Part shown: piece by piece, positions 10,623 through 16,233 of the stretch
Layout of the letters: each line of letters begins with the position of its first letter
Numbering within the stretch: the stretch's first letter is position 1
Assembly: GCA_964580585.1 (NCBI GenBank)
Contig: CAZOKZ010000003.1
Span: forward strand, 51,468-115,467
Length of the DNA stretch: 64,000 nt
Direction of reading: 5' to 3'
DNA from: an uncultured Candidatus Sumerlaeota bacterium
GTDB lineage: Bacteria; Sumerlaeota; Sumerlaeia; SLMS01; JAHLLQ01
The notes under the pieces: model-generated
Databases searched by the model: none
Seen by the model: only the letters and a program-made list of their open reading frames with translations
Told to the model about the DNA's origin: nothing
Made by a program: the position numbers and the translations under genes

Positions 10623-11618
10623 TCAGCTGATTATTCGTCGGGCAGCGTCGAACAATCCGGCTTTTCTGCTGATGCGCGTGGCGGCCAGTGTCATCTCCAA
10701 TTGTGGCCCGAAATGACGTTTGAAACGAGCAATGCTTGGGGTGTTGGCGCCCACCCAATCGTAAAGTTGCGGCAAACCTTGCCGGTCGGTTTCTTCCAGC
10801 GCGCCGTAATGTAATAACGTCGGGGCGCCAGAGCCTAATTGCTCGGGATCGGATGCTCCGGCCAGATAATAAACGCGATGGGCATCGTGACCAAACAACC
10901 CCGCTGCGTGCACGTCTCCGTCCCCATTACGTACTTCAACGATGAAACCGGCGTCTTCGGATTTCAGCCAGGGACCCAACGATTCGATAGACGCGGCGAG
11001 CGTGGCATCGAGGCCCTGTCGTTTGGCATTCGTTTTCCAAAGTCGAGCGATGGCGCCCGTTTCCGAAGCGGATAACGTATGGCATTTTAGCCCTTCCTTG
11101 CGAGCTTTACGCGCCTGTCGTTTGACCGACGATCCGAAATCGCTTTCCCACGCACCGGGTGTTTCCCACGCGGTCAGATAATTATAATGCGGACGCACAT
11201 TCCAACCGTGCCACATTAAGCCGCGCGCGTCCGTAACACATGCGGGAAATATTGCATCTACTCGATCAACGGAAGCGGGAATTGCGCGGGCAATGGCTTC
11301 GAGTCCATCGCGCCAGAATCGTTCGGCTTCCGCTCCGTCGAGAGTGCTCGATTCCGCTCGCACGAGCGGTCCGCAGGATGGAGCAAAGTATGGCGATTGC
11401 CAAAACAGCAATCCTTTACGGCGAGCTTCGCAAAACGCGATTGCCATTTCGATTCGGTCGCCCCGCCATGCGCCGGCAAAACGCGCCTGTCGATTTCGCG
11501 CCGCATGCAATGCATAAGCGGGACGTTGCACCAGACTGCGGTTTGCACTGGCGTGCCACAACGATTCAAGCGTTGAGAGATCATTTTCGTCGAGCGTGCG
11601 TGCGGTCCAGTTGGTCAT
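10623..11618 (-). CDS. FemAB-like / GNAT-fold acyltransferase family protein
   Basis: At ~330 aa the size fits. The call rests on overall resemblance to the FemAB/Acetyltransf_6 family. It overlaps the upstream thioredoxin gene by 4 nt, so they form an operon. Confidence 0.4.
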   Translation of the reverse strand: MTNWTARTLDENDLSTLESLWHASANRSLVQRPAYALHAARNRQARFAGAWRGDRIEMAIAFCEARRKGLLFWQSPYFAPSCGPLVRAESSTLDGAEAERFWRDGLEAIARAIPASVDRVDAIFPACVTDARGLMWHGWNVRPHYNYLTAWETPGAWESDFGSSVKRQARKARKEGLKCHTLSASETGAIARLWKTNAKRQGLDATLAASIESLGPWLKSEDAGFIVEVRNGDGDVHAAGLFGHDAHRVYYLAGASDPEQLGSGAPTLLHYGALEETDRQGLPQLYDWVGANTPSIARFKRHFGPQLEMTLAATRISRKAGLFDAARRIIS

Positions 11619-12157
11619 TGAACGGGCTCGCTGCCAGCGATTTCACGCAGGAAAGCAACAGCATCCGCGTTGTCCCATGCCGTGGCGCCGGTGTACTCGA
11701 ATCGCACGCGTTGATCTTTGTCCAACACGATGGTATGCGGAGTGAAATTGATTGAAATCTCGGGTGGCAACGGGGCGGCGAGGACGAAAATTGGCAGAGT
11801 CAATTTTCGACTTTTTGCAAAGGATGCCACGCGTTTCAGATTGTTGTCGGCTGCCAGACAAACCACAACAATGTCTTTATCGTTTTTCAACTGGGTATGC
11901 AAACGTTGCAAACTTGGCATTTCACGAATGCACGGTGGGCAACTGGTGGACCAGATGTTAAGCAGCACGGTTTTCCCGGCAAAATTTTCCTCAAAGGAAA
12001 CCGGCGACCCATCTAAACCCACCATGGCGATGGGAACACTGAGTTTCGGCGCGGAGGCGCTGGCTTCAAATGTCGGGCCCGAGTGCGTGGATGTCACGAA
12101 CAGATAAAAAACTCCGGCGGTCAATAATACAGCGGTGAGTGTCAATGCTTCGTTCAT
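11615..12157 (-). CDS. TlpA/ResA-like periplasmic thiol:disulfide oxidoreductase (thioredoxin fold, WSTSCPPC)
   Basis: Has an N-terminal TM/signal and a CPPC active site in a thioredoxin-like context. Confidence 0.8.
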   Translation of the reverse strand: MNEALTLTAVLLTAGVFYLFVTSTHSGPTFEASASAPKLSVPIAMVGLDGSPVSFEENFAGKTVLLNIWSTSCPPCIREMPSLQRLHTQLKNDKDIVVVCLAADNNLKRVASFAKSRKLTLPIFVLAAPLPPEISINFTPHTIVLDKDQRVRFEYTGATAWDNADAVAFLREIAGSEPVQ

Positions 12158-12779
12158 GAGAAGGGATGGCCGTCGGTGATTTTTTTTTTGATACCGGGAA
12201 GAAAGGAGGTGAGAACGCTCGCCGCATTCTTCCTCAGGTTAGATTGTACTCGCATGCCGAGTCAAAAGGAACCGCAGAGTTGGGAATTCCAAAAAGTGTA
12301 CCATTTTCAGGTTGTTCATGCGTTTCCTTGAAATTTCGAACCGCCATTTCATTGCCTGCACTTGTTTTGGGTCTTACTGGTTGCCGTGTCGATTGGCCTG
12401 AAGGGGGGATGCCGTTCGCAAGGTTCGCGACTCCGGTATGCTTCTTTGCCAACCCGACGGAATCACACACTGGAACAACGAAGGACACGAGTTGGCGGCG
12501 GACTTGTTGCTGCCAGTAGTCGTTGAACAGATGTTGCGCCAATCAGTAAAATATGTGCATCGCCACAGGGTTATTCACCTCGTGTTTCTTGGTATTTTTG
12601 TGCCTTTACGATTGGGTTTTGTAATTTTGAGTGAAGATGAGAATTACGTTGAGTGGAAAAAAATCTGCGCAAAGCACTTGACAAAGATACCCCGGTCCAA
12701 GCACTCGTTAACTGCACATACGGACTTGGTGCGACGCATCGACTCCGGCCCGTTCAATGGCAACGACGAGGAAAAGTAG

Positions 12780-13051
12780 GTTTTCCCGGGCAGAGCATGA
12801 GAGAAGGAACCCACTGGCTGAGAGGTTCCCGCCCCCGGACTACTGAACTGGCCTCCGAGCCGCTGGCGCGAACGCGGACCCGCAAGGGCCGCCAGTAGTT
12901 CCAGCCGAAACGACCTCTCTCGTCAGCAGAGGATACGAAGGGTTCGCGTTCCCCGCATTGGGTTGAGCCGAACCGAAATCGGGGTGGTACCGCGCAAACA
13001 CCGCGCCCCCGGCAAGCCTCCACAGGCAATGCCGGGGGCGCTTTTCATTTT
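12780..13051 (+). ncRNA. Candidate structured ncRNA of unknown class, ending in a strong intrinsic terminator
   Basis: The region is GC-rich and non-coding, with many internal complementary segments. Its 3' end is a perfect 12-bp stem (gcgcccccggca / tgccgggggcgc) with a 15-nt loop. The run ttttcatttt follows at 13003-13051. A TTGACA at 12678 is a possible but weak promoter. The 5' end is undefined. Only spurious antisense ORFs overlap it. Confidence 0.25.
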
Positions 13052-13251
13052 GCGAGGTTCGCCACGATGACGACGACGCAGACAACTTTTTCGATTCGAC
13101 TGTCCCTCCTGGGTCTTCGACTTATCCTGCCATGATGGCCGCCCGACGCGCGGCGATCATGGCCTAAGCCGCTCGTTTCCCCTTTTCCATAGCAATACTT
13201 GCTCGCTTCTGACCCGGCTCGAAGCAGCCGAATCGAAAGGAATTTCCGAAA

Positions 13252-14847
13252 ATGACGAACACAGCGAACAACAACCGCGTTTATATCTTCGACACCACGT
13301 TGCGCGACGGCGAACAAGCCCCGGGCTGTTCGATGAACGCGCGCGAAAAACTGGAAGTCGCCCGCCAGTTGGCGCGCCTGGGCGTCGACATCATCGAGGC
13401 CGGTTTTCCGATCAGCTCGCCGGGCGACTTCGCCAGCGTGCGCGAAATCGCCGAAGTCGTTGGGACACAATCAGGAGCGCCGGTGATCGCGGGTTTAGCC
13501 CGTGCACGCGAAGGCGACATTCAACGCGCCTACGAAGCGGTAAACGCCGCGATGCGTCCGCGCATTCACACGTTCATCGCCACGTCGCCGATTCACATGG
13601 AACACAAGCTGCGCATGACGCCCGACCGCGTCATGGAAACCGCCGTCGAGATGGTGAAATTCGCCCGCTCGCTGGTCGCCGACGTCGAGTTCTCACTGGA
13701 AGACGCAGGACGCACGGACTGGGGTTTCATGGTCGAGATCGTGACCGCCGTGATCGAAGCAGGCGCGACGACGATCAACATTCCCGACACGGTGGGCTAT
13801 TGCCAGCCCGCCGGGTTTGGCGCCCAGATTCGCCACTTGTACCAGAACTGCCGCAACATCAACGACGCGATCATTTCGGTGCACTGTCACAACGATTTGG
13901 GGCTGGCGGTGGCGAATTCGCTGGCCGCCGTCGCCGAAGGCGCCCGCCAGGTCGAGTGTACGATCAATGGCTTGGGCGAACGCGCGGGCAACGCCTCGCT
14001 GGAAGAAGTCGTGATGAATTTCAAAACGCGCCACGATTTCTTTGGTATCGAGACGGGCATCAACACGCAGGAAATTTACCGCACGTCGCGTCTGGTCAGC
14101 GAAATGACCGGCCAGCGCGTGCAATCGAACAAAGCCATCGTGGGCGCGAACGCGTTTGCGCACGAATCCGGCATCCACCAGGACGGTATGCTGAAGCACG
14201 CACAGACGTATGAAATCATGACGCCCGAATCGGTCGGCTGGACCGGCGAAGGTTTGGTGCTGGGCAAGCACTCGGGGCGTCACGCGTTCAATACGCGCGT
14301 CGCCGCGTTGGGTTACACGTTGGACAAAGAAGAATTGGAAGCAGCGTTCGAACGTTTCAAAGAAGTGTGCGACAAGAAAAAGGAAGTGTACGAAGACGAC
14401 TTGATCGCGTTGGTGGACGAAGTCATGTTCAAAGGCGCGGCGACGTGGGAATTGGCCACGTACGAGTACGCATGCGGCCCGGACCGTCGTCCCAGCGCCA
14501 CGGTTTGCCTGTTTGTCGATGGCGAGAAAAAATGCGCCACCGGCACCGGCGACGGACCCGTCGATGCGGCGTTCAAAGCGGTCGATAGCTTGACCGACGC
14601 AAACGTTTCTCTGTCCGGGTTTACGTTGGACGCCATCACCGAGGGCGAAGATGCATTGGGCCGTGTGACGGTTTCCATCGAACGCGCGGGCGGTCGTCGT
14701 GTCAAAGGCCGCGCCGTGAGCACGGACATCATTCAGGCCGCGATCAAAGCGTACATCAACGCGCTCAACAGCCTGCACGTTCAGGAAACGTTGGCTGCCA
14801 GTCGCGCCTCGGCGGAGGCCGTTGCGGTGCCGTCGCACTTGGTGTAA
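13252..14847 (+). CDS. leuA: 2-isopropylmalate synthase
   Basis: Shows the HMGL-like TIM barrel signatures (TTLRDGEQ, HCHNDLGLAVANSLAAV). A C-terminal LeuA dimerisation/allosteric domain is present. Confidence 0.95.
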   Translation: MTNTANNNRVYIFDTTLRDGEQAPGCSMNAREKLEVARQLARLGVDIIEAGFPISSPGDFASVREIAEVVGTQSGAPVIAGLARAREGDIQRAYEAVNAAMRPRIHTFIATSPIHMEHKLRMTPDRVMETAVEMVKFARSLVADVEFSLEDAGRTDWGFMVEIVTAVIEAGATTINIPDTVGYCQPAGFGAQIRHLYQNCRNINDAIISVHCHNDLGLAVANSLAAVAEGARQVECTINGLGERAGNASLEEVVMNFKTRHDFFGIETGINTQEIYRTSRLVSEMTGQRVQSNKAIVGANAFAHESGIHQDGMLKHAQTYEIMTPESVGWTGEGLVLGKHSGRHAFNTRVAALGYTLDKEELEAAFERFKEVCDKKKEVYEDDLIALVDEVMFKGAATWELATYEYACGPDRRPSATVCLFVDGEKKCATGTGDGPVDAAFKAVDSLTDANVSLSGFTLDAITEGEDALGRVTVSIERAGGRRVKGRAVSTDIIQAAIKAYINALNSLHVQETLAASRASAEAVAVPSHLV

Positions 14848-14911: not shown

Positions 14912-15235
14912 ATGCCGAAACCACCGATTCGTCGCCATCCGCAAAACGCCAAAGGCGACTTTTATTTCGCCGAGGGAATTTGCGTGAATTGCGATGGCCC
15001 GTCTGTGCGCGCGCCGGAATTTTTCGGCACCGTGGAAAGCGCGAATGGTGGCACGCAATGCATTGTTCGTCACCAACCGCAAACACCGGAAGAAATCAAT
15101 CGCGTGATCCAGGCCATGGAATCGTCGTGCTGCGGCGCGATGCGTTACGGAGGCAACGACATTCGAATCATCGCACGCTTGGAAGCTTCGGGGAACGGGA
15201 ATTTGTGCGACTGGCGGGAAGTAGATAAAGAATAA
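14912..15235 (+). CDS. Small ferredoxin-like protein (single Fe-S cluster type)
   Basis: DFYFAEGICVNCDGPSVRAPEFF resembles the mono-cluster ferredoxin motif C-x2-C-x3-P...APE-F. Further Cys residues lie downstream. The stop codon abuts the long hairpin element. Confidence 0.35.
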   Translation: MPKPPIRRHPQNAKGDFYFAEGICVNCDGPSVRAPEFFGTVESANGGTQCIVRHQPQTPEEINRVIQAMESSCCGAMRYGGNDIRIIARLEASGNGNLCDWREVDKE

Positions 15236-15381
15236 ACCACAGAGGCACAGAGACACGGAGGACGCACGGAGAAGAGTTTTATTAAAAAGACGTAGAGATT
15301 TTTTGAGGAAGTGAAATTATATTTCCTTCCTCTTTTTTATTTTTCTCCGTGATCCCTCCGTGTCTCTGTGCCTCTGTGGTT
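15236..15381. repeat. Long inverted-repeat (hairpin) element between convergent genes
   Basis: Arm 15236-15273 (ccacagaggcacagagacacggaggacgcacggag) is the reverse complement of 15344-15381. The 27-bp core is perfect. The ~70-nt loop is AT-rich. Arm 2 overlaps the last ~45 nt of the minus-strand TIGR02757-like CDS. Confidence 0.6.
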
Positions 15382-16233
15382 ATTTTTTTCTCCCCAGACC
15401 TCCCGAAGTCTCATGATGCCCGGTCGCGTCATCGAAAAATCGTAACGCGTCGGATCGTCAGGCGCGATGGCGCGTAGGGCATCGGTGATTTCCACTGCCG
15501 TGCGCAGGTCCGCCGTTTTGCGCGTTGTCAGTTTCAGCAACTCCGCCACGGCGAGCACGTGTGTATCGACGGGCATGATCAGGCGGCTGGGGGCGACATT
15601 CCACAGCCCTAAATCGATGCCGTCGTTTGGCCGACAAACCCAGCGCAAAAACAAATTCATGCGTTTGCAGCCGCTTTTTTTCGCGGGCGGCGTGAGCAAC
15701 AAATGCGCGCCCGACGGCAATGGGGACGGAGGCGCATCGCGCCGCGCCAGTGTGCGTTTTCGCGTGCGAAGGCCGGTGATTTTCTGCTCTGTCAATGCTT
15801 CGATCCAGCGTTGCAGCGTCGGCAAAATCGTCGATTCGTTTGGTTCGTCCAGCGATTGCCACATCGCGCCGAGCGATCCGTGCGTGCGCAATGCGCCGCC
15901 GATCCACGCCAGGTACAGACGTAAATCTTCGGCGCGAACCCAACGGTAAACGAACCCGCGATATAGACGCGCCCAGTCTTTCGGTTCGCGGGCGGCGAGC
16001 GCTCTGGCGGGATGGGGACGGAGGGGACGCAGAACGGTGTCCACGGCTCCTTGGATGGCTTTCACGTTGCCGAACGCGAACGACGCGGCGATCAGCGCGA
16101 CGACTTCGCGGTCGGCGGGGTCGTCGAATGTGTGCACGACGCCAAGCGGATCGGTGCCGAGCAGCGCTGGGTCGTGGTACTCGGCGTAGAGGTCGTCGAG
16201 CAGCGCGCGGAGAGCTTTCTGGCGGGCGTTCAT
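15337..16233 (-). CDS. TIGR02757-family (DUF2400) conserved hypothetical protein
   Basis: The C-terminal region has the characteristic LFLRWxxRP-DG-DLGLW and PVDTH motifs. The start overlaps the stop of the downstream DUF2339-like gene (operon). Confidence 0.55.
   Translation of the reverse strand: MNARQKALRALLDDLYAEYHDPALLGTDPLGVVHTFDDPADREVVALIAASFAFGNVKAIQGAVDTVLRPLRPHPARALAAREPKDWARLYRGFVYRWVRAEDLRLYLAWIGGALRTHGSLGAMWQSLDEPNESTILPTLQRWIEALTEQKITGLRTRKRTLARRDAPPSPLPSGAHLLLTPPAKKSGCKRMNLFLRWVCRPNDGIDLGLWNVAPSRLIMPVDTHVLAVAELLKLTTRKTADLRTAVEITDALRAIAPDDPTRYDFSMTRPGIMRLREVWGEKNNHRGTETRRDHGEK

Follow-up and report, generated by a model that had tools for sequence, protein, structure and literature searches.

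A leucine T-box and a conserved upstream open reading frame lie in tandem before leuA in Sumerlaeota

We analyzed a 64,000-nucleotide (nt) stretch of DNA from an uncultured Candidatus Sumerlaeota bacterium (GenBank assembly GCA_964580585.1, contig CAZOKZ010000003.1), called the window here and numbered from its first letter, and concentrated on the region between 12678 and 13251 directly upstream of leuA, the gene for 2-isopropylmalate synthase. An initial annotation, made from the letters of the sequence, had described 12678-13051 as a candidate structured noncoding RNA. The region is indeed conserved, structured, and noncoding, but it is a cis-acting 5′ leader of leuA and not a free-standing RNA gene. 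Its G+C content is 60-64%, and none of the open reading frames (ORFs) overlapping 12678-13051 had a match in Pfam, which bore out the view that it holds no credible coding sequence. The strong intrinsic terminator proposed at 13003-13051, with a 12-bp GC stem and a U-tract, is present, and leuA starts 200 nt downstream of it at 13252, as the annotation had it. The region is bordered by the following genes and signals:

11615-12157, minus strand: redoxin-like gene, the divergent neighbor on the far side of the leader from leuA
13236-13242, plus strand: Shine-Dalgarno (SD) sequence of leuA, AAAGGAA, as read from the sequence
13252-14847, plus strand: leuA coding sequence, 531 amino acids, with the Pfam domains HMGL-like, HCS_D2, and LeuA_dimer; its relatives carry the name 2-isopropylmalate synthase in the databases

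The Rfam model of the T-box leader (RF00230) matched 12754-13013 on the plus strand from end to end (model positions 1-219 of 219), with a score of 70.4 bits and E values of 4.9e-15 in a permissive scan of 1 kb and 3.1e-13 over the whole window. At gathering thresholds, Rfam gave no match in the whole window, and the Rfam scan that the initial annotation had suggested returned the T-box only below the curated cutoff; the gathering score of RF00230, 93 bits, is a curation threshold and not a biological feature. The annotation had been unable to place the region with RNase P, transfer-messenger RNA, signal recognition particle RNA, or 6S RNA, and we agree that it is none of these and is a T-box instead. 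No other T-boxes were found within the window. The T-box terminator escaped a consensus terminator scan on account of its loop, which is longer than 8 nt. The first module of the leader consists of the following features:

12678-12683, plus strand: TTGACA, a -35-like element of a putative promoter, which all Sumerlaeota relatives have ~75 nt ahead of Stem I
from 12716, plus strand: ACAT(A)CGG, a conserved motif that recurs in relatives ~35 nt beyond TTGACA and may mark the start of transcription
12721-12747, plus strand: small 5′ hairpin predicted by folding
12759-12861, plus strand: Stem I, placed by the Rfam alignment, its helices recovered by RNAalifold with compensatory changes
12768-12778, plus strand: GA/K-turn motif of Stem I, GAGGAAAAGUA
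12800-12804, plus strand: AG bulge of Stem I, AGAGA
12816-12825, plus strand: distal loop of Stem I, GGCUGAGAGG
12845-12851, plus strand: specifier loop, GAA-CUG-G
12848-12850, plus strand: specifier codon CUG (Leu), followed by the conserved 3′ purine G12851
12862-12905, plus strand: Stem II with the AGUA S-turn region; 5/5 basal and 4/4 upper pairs changed on both sides
12914-12932, plus strand: Stem IIA/B pseudoknot region
12941-12974, plus strand: Stem III, with the flanks GAAGG (RRRxG) and AA (AAAUC), placed by folding and leader comparison
12981-13010, plus strand: antiterminator, made up of helix A1 (GGGG/CCCC), a 7-nt bulge, and helix A2 (GCGC/GCGC)
12981-12995, plus strand: T-box core, GGGG-UGGUACC-GCGC
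12985-12991, plus strand: T-box bulge UGGUACC, with UGGU, complementary to the tRNA 3′-ACCA, at its 5′ edge next to helix A1
13003-13041, plus strand: intrinsic terminator stem of 12 bp, GCGCCCCCGGCA/UGCCGGGGGCGC, conserved in all relatives
13042-13051, plus strand: U-tract of the terminator, UUUUCAUUUU

The antiterminator uses 13003-13010 as its 3′ strand and the terminator uses this segment in its 5′ arm, so that the two folds are mutually exclusive. The discriminator region had a folding energy of -40.3 kcal/mol in the terminator form (terminator folds lie at about -35 to -40 kcal/mol), and the canonical antiterminator fold in the window had -10 to -11.7 kcal/mol. Folding of the region as a single sequence was only moderately better than that of shuffled sequences (z = -2.0). 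The published rules for T-boxes ask for a specifier followed by a purine, a UGGN bulge, and RRRxG and AA flanks of Stem III (PMC7583486); we found all of these along with the Stem I motifs, Stem II and Stem IIA/B, and a terminator that excludes the antiterminator. On each structural criterion that we tested, the first module qualifies as a bona fide T-box, and only the Rfam curation threshold is missed. We are almost certain that 12678-13051 is the Leu T-box leader of leuA.

We asked whether this leader is conserved in other Sumerlaeota. A protein search found an NCBI protein from a metagenome-assembled genome that is identical to LeuA and the nearest relatives at 62-77% identity, labelled Sumerlaeia or Sumerlaeota, and leuA scans of species-representative genomes and JGI metagenomes found nothing closer than 63% identity. 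Leaders were taken from the contigs of ten of the eleven LeuA relatives (P0008 was left out); GTDB contributed a single Sumerlaeota locus, L001. A T-box lies upstream of leuA on the same strand in all 12 relatives examined from the Sumerlaeota. In the 10/10 relatives scanned with Rfam the match upstream of leuA was full length (40.6-86.3 bits, E values from 1e-5 to 2e-17), and two further relatives, which were not scanned with Rfam, carry the same T-box motifs. The flanking genes differ in every Sumerlaeota genome, and leuA is monocistronic; promoter, leader, and leuA stay together (loci L161-L173 and the window) while their neighbors change, suggesting that they form one conserved unit. The start coordinate chosen in the initial annotation coincides with the TTGACA kept in all relatives (12678-12683). 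No consensus -10 element was found, and a consensus promoter scan did not report a sigma-70 promoter at TTGACA.

Covariation was assessed on a MAFFT alignment of 11 leaders with an RNAalifold consensus of 47 pairs. RNAalifold independently recovered Stem I (its base, K-turn, upper, and distal helices), Stem II, Stem IIA/B, and the terminator. Standard pairs made up 93.8% of the cells of the 47 consensus pairs, and 24/47 pairs had changed on both sides. None of 500 column shuffles reached any of the observed covariation measures (0/500), and pairing dropped to 35-55% when the 3′ partners were slid by 1-3 columns. Together with the full-length Rfam match, this conservation across homologous leaders confirms the extensive secondary structure that the annotation had surmised from complementary stretches, by the kind of folding and covariation check that it had proposed. 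Stem III appears as a hairpin of differing sequence in 11/13 leaders and is absent in L163 and L165. The antiterminator, with GGGG, the 7-nt bulge UGGNACC, helix A2, and CCCC, can form in 13/13 leaders, and its helix A2 covaries (GCGU/ACGC, GCGCA/UGCGC, GCGCC/GGCGC, and others).

The specifier amino acid, Leu, matches the regulated gene leuA. The specifier codon is CUG in 11 of the 13 leaders and CUC in the other two; the next base is always a purine, followed by the helix CC, and in most Sumerlaeota leaders this purine is G rather than the usual A. We considered ACU (Thr) as the specifier and rejected it, because in L001 and L161 this reading would place a pyrimidine where the conserved purine belongs. 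An extra A in L170 (GAA-A-CUG-G) also fixes the register and excludes the ACU reading. Judged by its sequence, the leader would bind tRNA-Leu(CAG) and respond with read-through. Several points weigh against this assignment. The T-box scores below the Rfam cutoff in the window and in all relatives scanned (40-86 versus 93 bits); two relatives (L001 at ~518-524, and L173) have UGGC and not UGGU in the bulge; the window contains no tRNA gene with which the anticodon and discriminator base of tRNA-Leu could be compared; and CUG is an unusual Leu specifier, as CUC accounts for 74% of the Leu T-box specifiers in TBDB (PMC7778990). The UGGC in the T-box bulge of L001 and L173 would imply either that the tRNA carries another discriminator base or that a mismatch is tolerated. 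The usual discriminator base of tRNA-Leu is A73.

The initial annotation had argued that the terminator lies too far upstream of leuA for a classical attenuator. This argument fails, because the T-box is in its own right an attenuator of leuA, one that senses tRNA, and because the 200 nt between terminator and gene hold a second conserved module; the length of this spacer varies from ~45 to 320 nt among relatives. The second module contains an upstream ORF (uORF) and the following features, partly located by minimum free energy (MFE) and centroid folds:

13054-13057, plus strand: SD sequence of the uORF, GAGG, directly after the U-tract and 9 nt before the uORF AUG, with a comparable SD before every relative's uORF
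13067-13135, plus strand: leader uORF of 22 codons plus UGA, MTTTQTTFSIRLSLLGLRLILP-stop, with six Leu codons and the ending L-R(CGA)-L(CUU)-I-L-P-UGA
13086-13101 with 13226-13241, plus strand: long-range pairing specific to the window, between uORF codons 7-12 (UUUUUCGAUUCGACUG) and the region before leuA, in the MFE and centroid folds
13118-13123, plus strand: invariant CGA-CUU of the uORF
13129-13163, plus strand: stop-codon hairpin, GCCAUGAUGGCCGCC...GGCGAUCAUGGC, with UGA (13133-13135) in its 5′ arm; present in all leaders
13118-13171, plus strand: weaker extension of the hairpin, from folding
13164-13235, plus strand: C-rich, G-poor spacer without a U-tract terminator, a candidate loading region for Rho (71 nt measured, C = 25, G = 14)

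An SD-preceded uORF follows directly after the terminator in 10/13 Sumerlaeota leaders, and in the window its stop codon lies 116 nt before leuA (88-197 nt in relatives). The leader thus places a short ORF rich in codons for the same amino acid after the T-box terminator, so the two elements stand in tandem. Six of the uORFs end in L-R-L-x-x-P-UGA, for example with LLLGGLRLGRP-stop, ILLLPGLRLRRP-stop, or RLLLGLRLRKP-stop; the uORF of L161 ends in R-L-S-W-P-UGA, and L163, L167, and L173 have looser variants. Leu accounts for 52/232 codons of the Sumerlaeota uORFs (22%), more than the ~10% that composition would predict or the 6% of LeuA. This enrichment is specific to the frame, with 52 Leu codons in the uORF frame versus 16 and 9 in the other two. 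Among the Leu codons of the uORFs, CUU makes up 33% versus 11% in the genes of the window, CUC is also enriched, and UUG is depleted; the CUG-reading T-box and the CUU/CUC-rich uORF may therefore monitor different tRNA-Leu isoacceptors. The spacer after the hairpin has more C than G in 9/9 Sumerlaeota leaders, and in 8/9 it falls within the top 0.1-8% of background windows. From its sequence, we infer that the uORF is translated.

Two of the looser variants deserve a brief description. L163/L164 have, at 1781-1912, a uORF of 43 codons with 10 Leu, in which CGA-CUU stands 24 nt before the stop (L163). L173 has, at ~1795-1987, an L-R-R-L...R-P motif and the hairpin without an in-frame stop, and the frame reads on to 14 nt before leuA. 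The coverage of the L173 contig is low (3.5x), and the missing stop may be an assembly error.

We next looked for the uORF ending outside the Sumerlaeota. A search for the motif CGACUY-N6-CCN-stop on both strands of all fetched loci (2.07 Mb) found it before leuA, at a distance of ~70-130 nt, in 45 unique loci from outside the Sumerlaeota; ~3 hits were expected by chance, and only one hit lay elsewhere. The carriers are mostly Alphaproteobacteria (Rhodospirillales, Stellaceae, and others), and the loci include L010, L016, L021, L022, L026, L028, and L152. Their uORFs have 35-50 codons with a variable N-terminus, often contain runs of Leu (LLL, LLLLL), and end in [G/D/E]-x-L-R-L-[S/R/T/I]-x-P-UGA. 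The stop codon is enclosed in a hairpin of the form CCCCUGARCG...CGYUCAGGGG with no U-tract after it. The proteobacterial leaders have no T-box and no match to any Rfam family at E <= 0.01. A rescan at the peptide level, in which any codon was allowed, gave 37 sequences. Their first Leu codon varied (CUG in 18, CUU in 14, CUA in 4, and CUC in 1), and the positions that follow were nearly or entirely fixed, with CGA for Arg in 37/37, CUU for the Leu after Arg in 36/37, CCC for Pro in 33/37, and UGA as the stop in 37/37. CGA makes up only 12% of the Arg codons in the genes of the window. As read from these sequences, the conservation of the uORF ending is partly at the codon level.

The hairpin was tested on 70 nt from the Pro codon onward in 51 unique leaders and compared with shuffled sequences. 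Its mean z was -3.0, with 41/51 leaders below -2, and all three bases of the stop codon were paired in the MFE fold in 46/51 leaders. A synonymous change in the Pro codon, CCG>CCA, was matched by C>U in the 3′ arm of the hairpin. In nearly all members, CGA stands a constant 15 nt before the stop. We found no intrinsic terminator after the hairpin, or conserved in the spacer, among ~55 Sumerlaeota and proteobacterial members. The uORF with its stop-codon hairpin is very likely a real, conserved element under selection. A literature search found nothing relevant on an alphaproteobacterial leuA uORF with the LRLxxP ending; a comparative study of proteobacterial attenuators by Vitreschak et al. 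from 2004 may cover leuA in Alphaproteobacteria. Outside the Sumerlaeota, the closest relatives of LeuA, with 55-61% identity, belong to Zeta- and Alphaproteobacteria, a hint that leuA may have been acquired along with its uORF.

We propose that 12678-13251 is a 5′ regulatory leader of leuA with two leucine sensors in series, which we regard as reasonably probable. The two modules, whose anatomy, conservation, and covariation are observed, would be passed one after the other. In the T-box, the CUG specifier in Stem I would pair with the anticodon of tRNA-Leu(CAG), and the UGGU of the T-box bulge would pair with the free 3′-ACCA end of the uncharged tRNA, which would stabilize the weak antiterminator (~-10 kcal/mol) against the far stronger terminator (~-40 kcal/mol). 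With an antiterminator this weak and a terminator this strong, RNA polymerase would read through only when uncharged tRNA-Leu accumulates. The read-through transcript would then offer a translated, Leu-rich uORF of 22 codons, and the 5′ arm of the hairpin consists of its last codons and its stop. The hairpin would remain folded while a ribosome is stalled further upstream, on the Leu run, and would be melted by a ribosome at the slow Pro-UGA stop. Progress over the Leu codons, and especially over the invariant pair of CGA (P site) and CUU (A site) that lies 15 nt before the stop, would thus decide the state of the hairpin; with the usual footprint, a ribosome that has CGA in its P site and CUU in its A site has its leading edge at the base of the hairpin. 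The state of the hairpin might in turn govern the amount of transcript or translation that gets to leuA, with Rho-dependent termination in the C-rich spacer as the most probable route. Both the direction of this second switch and the role of Rho are predictions of the scheme.

Several candidate outputs and additions were tried and rejected. The Leu run was the best partner of the leuA SD in only 2/9 leaders, an extension of the hairpin through pairing of CGACUU just past the hairpin was not significant (mean z -0.25), and we dropped the idea of a programmed frameshift at CUU-CGA, since CUU is not kept as the codon ahead of CGA. With other outputs eliminated and a C-rich, G-poor spacer present, Rho-dependent attenuation gated by the uORF is the output we favor. 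There are precedents in tnaC, speFL, cruR, mgtL, and corL (PMC12360218). Rho-dependent attenuation in the second module is a tentative suggestion, which we hold to be rather doubtful on its own. Beyond the Sumerlaeota, it is possible, though less likely than not, that the uORF module is an undescribed class of leuA leader that spans phyla (Alphaproteobacteria and relatives, and Sumerlaeota), defined by a variable N-terminus, the ending L-R(CGA)-L(CUU)-x-x-P-UGA, a buried stop codon, and no intrinsic terminator. Such a module could act as a codon-pair sensor, in which a poorly decoded CGA in the P site sensitizes the CUU in the A site, or through arrest at Pro-UGA that gates Rho or another event, and in Sumerlaeota, placed behind the T-box, it would complete a two-input gate that requires uncharged tRNA-Leu(CAG) and slow Leu decoding together.

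Some findings speak against two sensors in series. Three relatives (L001, L165, and L171) have no uORF and only a short spacer, and the uORF is hence dispensable. The stop-codon hairpin has no intrinsic terminator 3′ of it. It is solely the base composition of the spacer that points to Rho, and why stalling should keep Rho from acting is not explained by the anatomy. When the accessibility of the leuA SD and start codon was modelled as a function of ribosome position, we saw no consistent change in 9 Sumerlaeota leaders and no response in 45 proteobacterial leaders (P = 0.3-0.6).

Other explanations of the locus have to be weighed against this proposal. The region could be a free-standing small RNA gene with its own promoter, whose transcripts all stop at the terminator and work in trans without any relation to leuA, as the conserved TTGACA and the strong terminator would allow; terminated attenuator RNAs can act in trans elsewhere, for example rnTrpL in Sinorhizobium (PMC6614838). 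The end-to-end match to the T-box model with its Leu specifier and competing antiterminator argues against such a gene, as does the position directly upstream of leuA on the same strand in 13/13 Sumerlaeota genomes despite differing neighbors, and we consider it highly improbable, although the terminated leader RNA may have a side role in trans. The T-box might instead be the sole regulator, with the small ORF and hairpin representing a chance ORF, a structure of the spacer, or an ORF that loads ribosomes to protect the leader. L001, L165, and L171 do manage with a T-box and a short spacer, and an output mechanism of the uORF could not be shown. A uORF ending and stop-codon hairpin that are kept across phyla upstream of leuA (~45 loci versus ~3 by chance) are hard to reconcile with this, and the Leu enrichment follows the reading frame. 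Moreover, the first Leu, the Gly, and the Pro vary synonymously beside the invariant CGA-CUU and UGA, which points to selection on a translated, leucine-related element. A T-box acting by itself appears quite unlikely to us.

If the uORF is functional, it could work by translational attenuation in the manner of the LEU element or ermC, with a uORF segment pairing with the leuA SD and a stalled ribosome freeing leuA for translation. The pairing of 13086-13101 with 13226-13241 in the window includes the leuA SD (10-11 bp), the LEU element is a precedent (PMC1262725), and over 52 leaders the pairing of the LRL segment with its SD region was stronger than that with shuffled versions of the region (mean z -0.75, P = 6e-4). 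Relatives do not keep the pairing found in the window, however, and the LRL segment did not significantly prefer its own SD over foreign SDs (P = 0.17); in the Sumerlaeota leaders no such preference was seen (ranks 0.36-0.82). As the modelled accessibility of the SD was independent of ribosome position in both sets of leaders, and the Leu run was so rarely the best partner of the SD, we judge translational attenuation to be as poor a candidate as the T-box by itself. Alternatively, the uORF could encode a ligand-sensing arrest peptide like TnaC, SpeFL, or CruR, in which the L-R-L-x-x-P chain holds the ribosome at Pro-UGA in response to free leucine or a pathway intermediate, and the parked ribosome keeps the hairpin open and shields or exposes a Rho site. 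Conserved positions cluster in the last six residues, with an invariant penultimate Pro, an invariant UGA, and a fixed spacing. Among known peptides, TnaC has a Pro-UGA end and blocks RF2 (PMC8450073), and CruR, which gates Rho, carries the motif RAPP at its C-terminus (PMC12360218). Against an arrest peptide, most members also carry the runs of Leu codons expected for sensing of decoding speed, and conservation extends to the codons CGA and CUU and is not at the amino acid level alone. This explanation is unlikely, if somewhat less so than translational attenuation. We prefer the reading of two leucine sensors in series, of which the second responds to progress of the ribosome over the Leu codons.

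The first module has the same complete architecture as the class I transcriptional T-boxes of RF00230, such as those of Bacillus subtilis ilv-leu and of leuA in Geobacter and Pelobacter, together with a Leu specifier and a leucine biosynthesis gene. The Sumerlaeota leaders differ from known T-boxes in being G+C rich, in occurring in a candidate phylum, and in their preference for CUG, and the window and the ten relatives scanned with Rfam all score below the gathering score. More than 95% of T-boxes are in Firmicutes, and T-boxes upstream of leuA outside this phylum have been described in Geobacter and Pelobacter (PMC2494555). A literature search found no paper on riboswitches in Sumerlaeota.

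The leader with both modules most resembles that of the B. subtilis anti-TRAP operon, in which a T-box attenuator is likewise followed by a short ORF rich in codons for the same amino acid, an arrangement that senses uncharged tRNA and decoding speed in series. In that operon (rtpA/yczA-ycbK), a Trp T-box precedes a leader peptide with Trp codons, rtpLP (Chen & Yanofsky 2003, as cited in PMC10327191). The leuA leader differs in that it concerns Leu instead of Trp, that its uORF module also exists without a T-box in Proteobacteria, and that the uORF stop lies inside a hairpin 116 nt from leuA (88-197 nt in relatives); blocking of the SD was not shown in our modelling. The peptide rtpLP, in work by Chen & Yanofsky from 2003 and 2004, reportedly has 10 codons, ends next to the rtpA SD, and blocks this SD sterically. 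To our knowledge, the leuA leader would be only the second case in which a T-box acts in series with a leader peptide devoted to one and the same amino acid.

The uORF module by itself can be compared with other leader peptides. Escherichia coli leuL and the Leu-rich attenuator of Staphylococcus aureus ilvD (PMC5794164) likewise have a short ORF, translated and with Leu codons in clusters, before a Leu biosynthesis gene and a stop set relative to a downstream structure. The ~55 members described here differ in having no hairpin and U-tract terminator after the uORF and in their conserved C-terminal motif with the invariant CGA-CUU and Pro-UGA. The actinobacterial LEU element upstream of leuA, whose Leu codons were proposed to pair with the leuA SD (Seliverstov et al. 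2005, PMC1262725), also combines a Leu-codon uORF with structured RNA and no terminator, a likeness by description; SD pairing of this kind was not supported for the Sumerlaeota leaders. TnaC, SpeFL, and CruR (PMC12360218, PMC8450073) share the conserved C-terminal motif, the Pro and stop codon (UGA as in TnaC), a C-rich spacer, and the lack of an intrinsic terminator. In contrast to the leuA uORF, these peptides sense free ligands and mostly induce genes for catabolism or transport, whereas here a biosynthetic gene follows a uORF rich in Leu codons with its stop inside a hairpin; arrest and a role of Rho are hypothetical in this case.

The surroundings of the leader contain further features. 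Between the redoxin-like gene and the leader promoter lie ~520 nt (12158-12677) without a supported coding sequence, with a run of ten T (T10) at 12180-12189. A 113-amino-acid ORF at 12438-12779 has no Pfam match, is loosely similar to the C-terminus of GDSL hydrolases, and may be a gene remnant. Downstream of leuA, a 50-nt inverted repeat (15224-15273 and 15343-15392, arms 86% complementary and 69 nt apart) sits between the convergent genes 14912-15235 (plus strand, ferredoxin-like) and 15337-16233 (minus strand, DUF2400). It had sub-threshold matches to models of plant microRNA precursors on both strands, which reflect only the long hairpin, and 15224-15392 may be a bidirectional terminator or a repeat element.

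Overall, our analysis extends the range of T-boxes to the little-studied candidate phylum Sumerlaeota. As these T-boxes score below the Rfam cutoff, a whole lineage of them is invisible to routine annotation. The Leu T-box alone is a known family in an unusual phylum, and a T-box and uORF in series are a rare design, of which the leuA leader is a new form. Such a leader would be a natural design with two checkpoints, uncharged tRNA and then decoding speed, possibly of different tRNA-Leu isoacceptors. The seemingly empty 200 nt after the terminator also led us to the uORF and stop-codon hairpin upstream of leuA in dozens of proteobacterial genomes, which may be an undescribed and widespread regulator of leuA. 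If it is new, the uORF element would offer a tractable system for studying codon-pair or termination-dependent sensing in cultivable Alphaproteobacteria.

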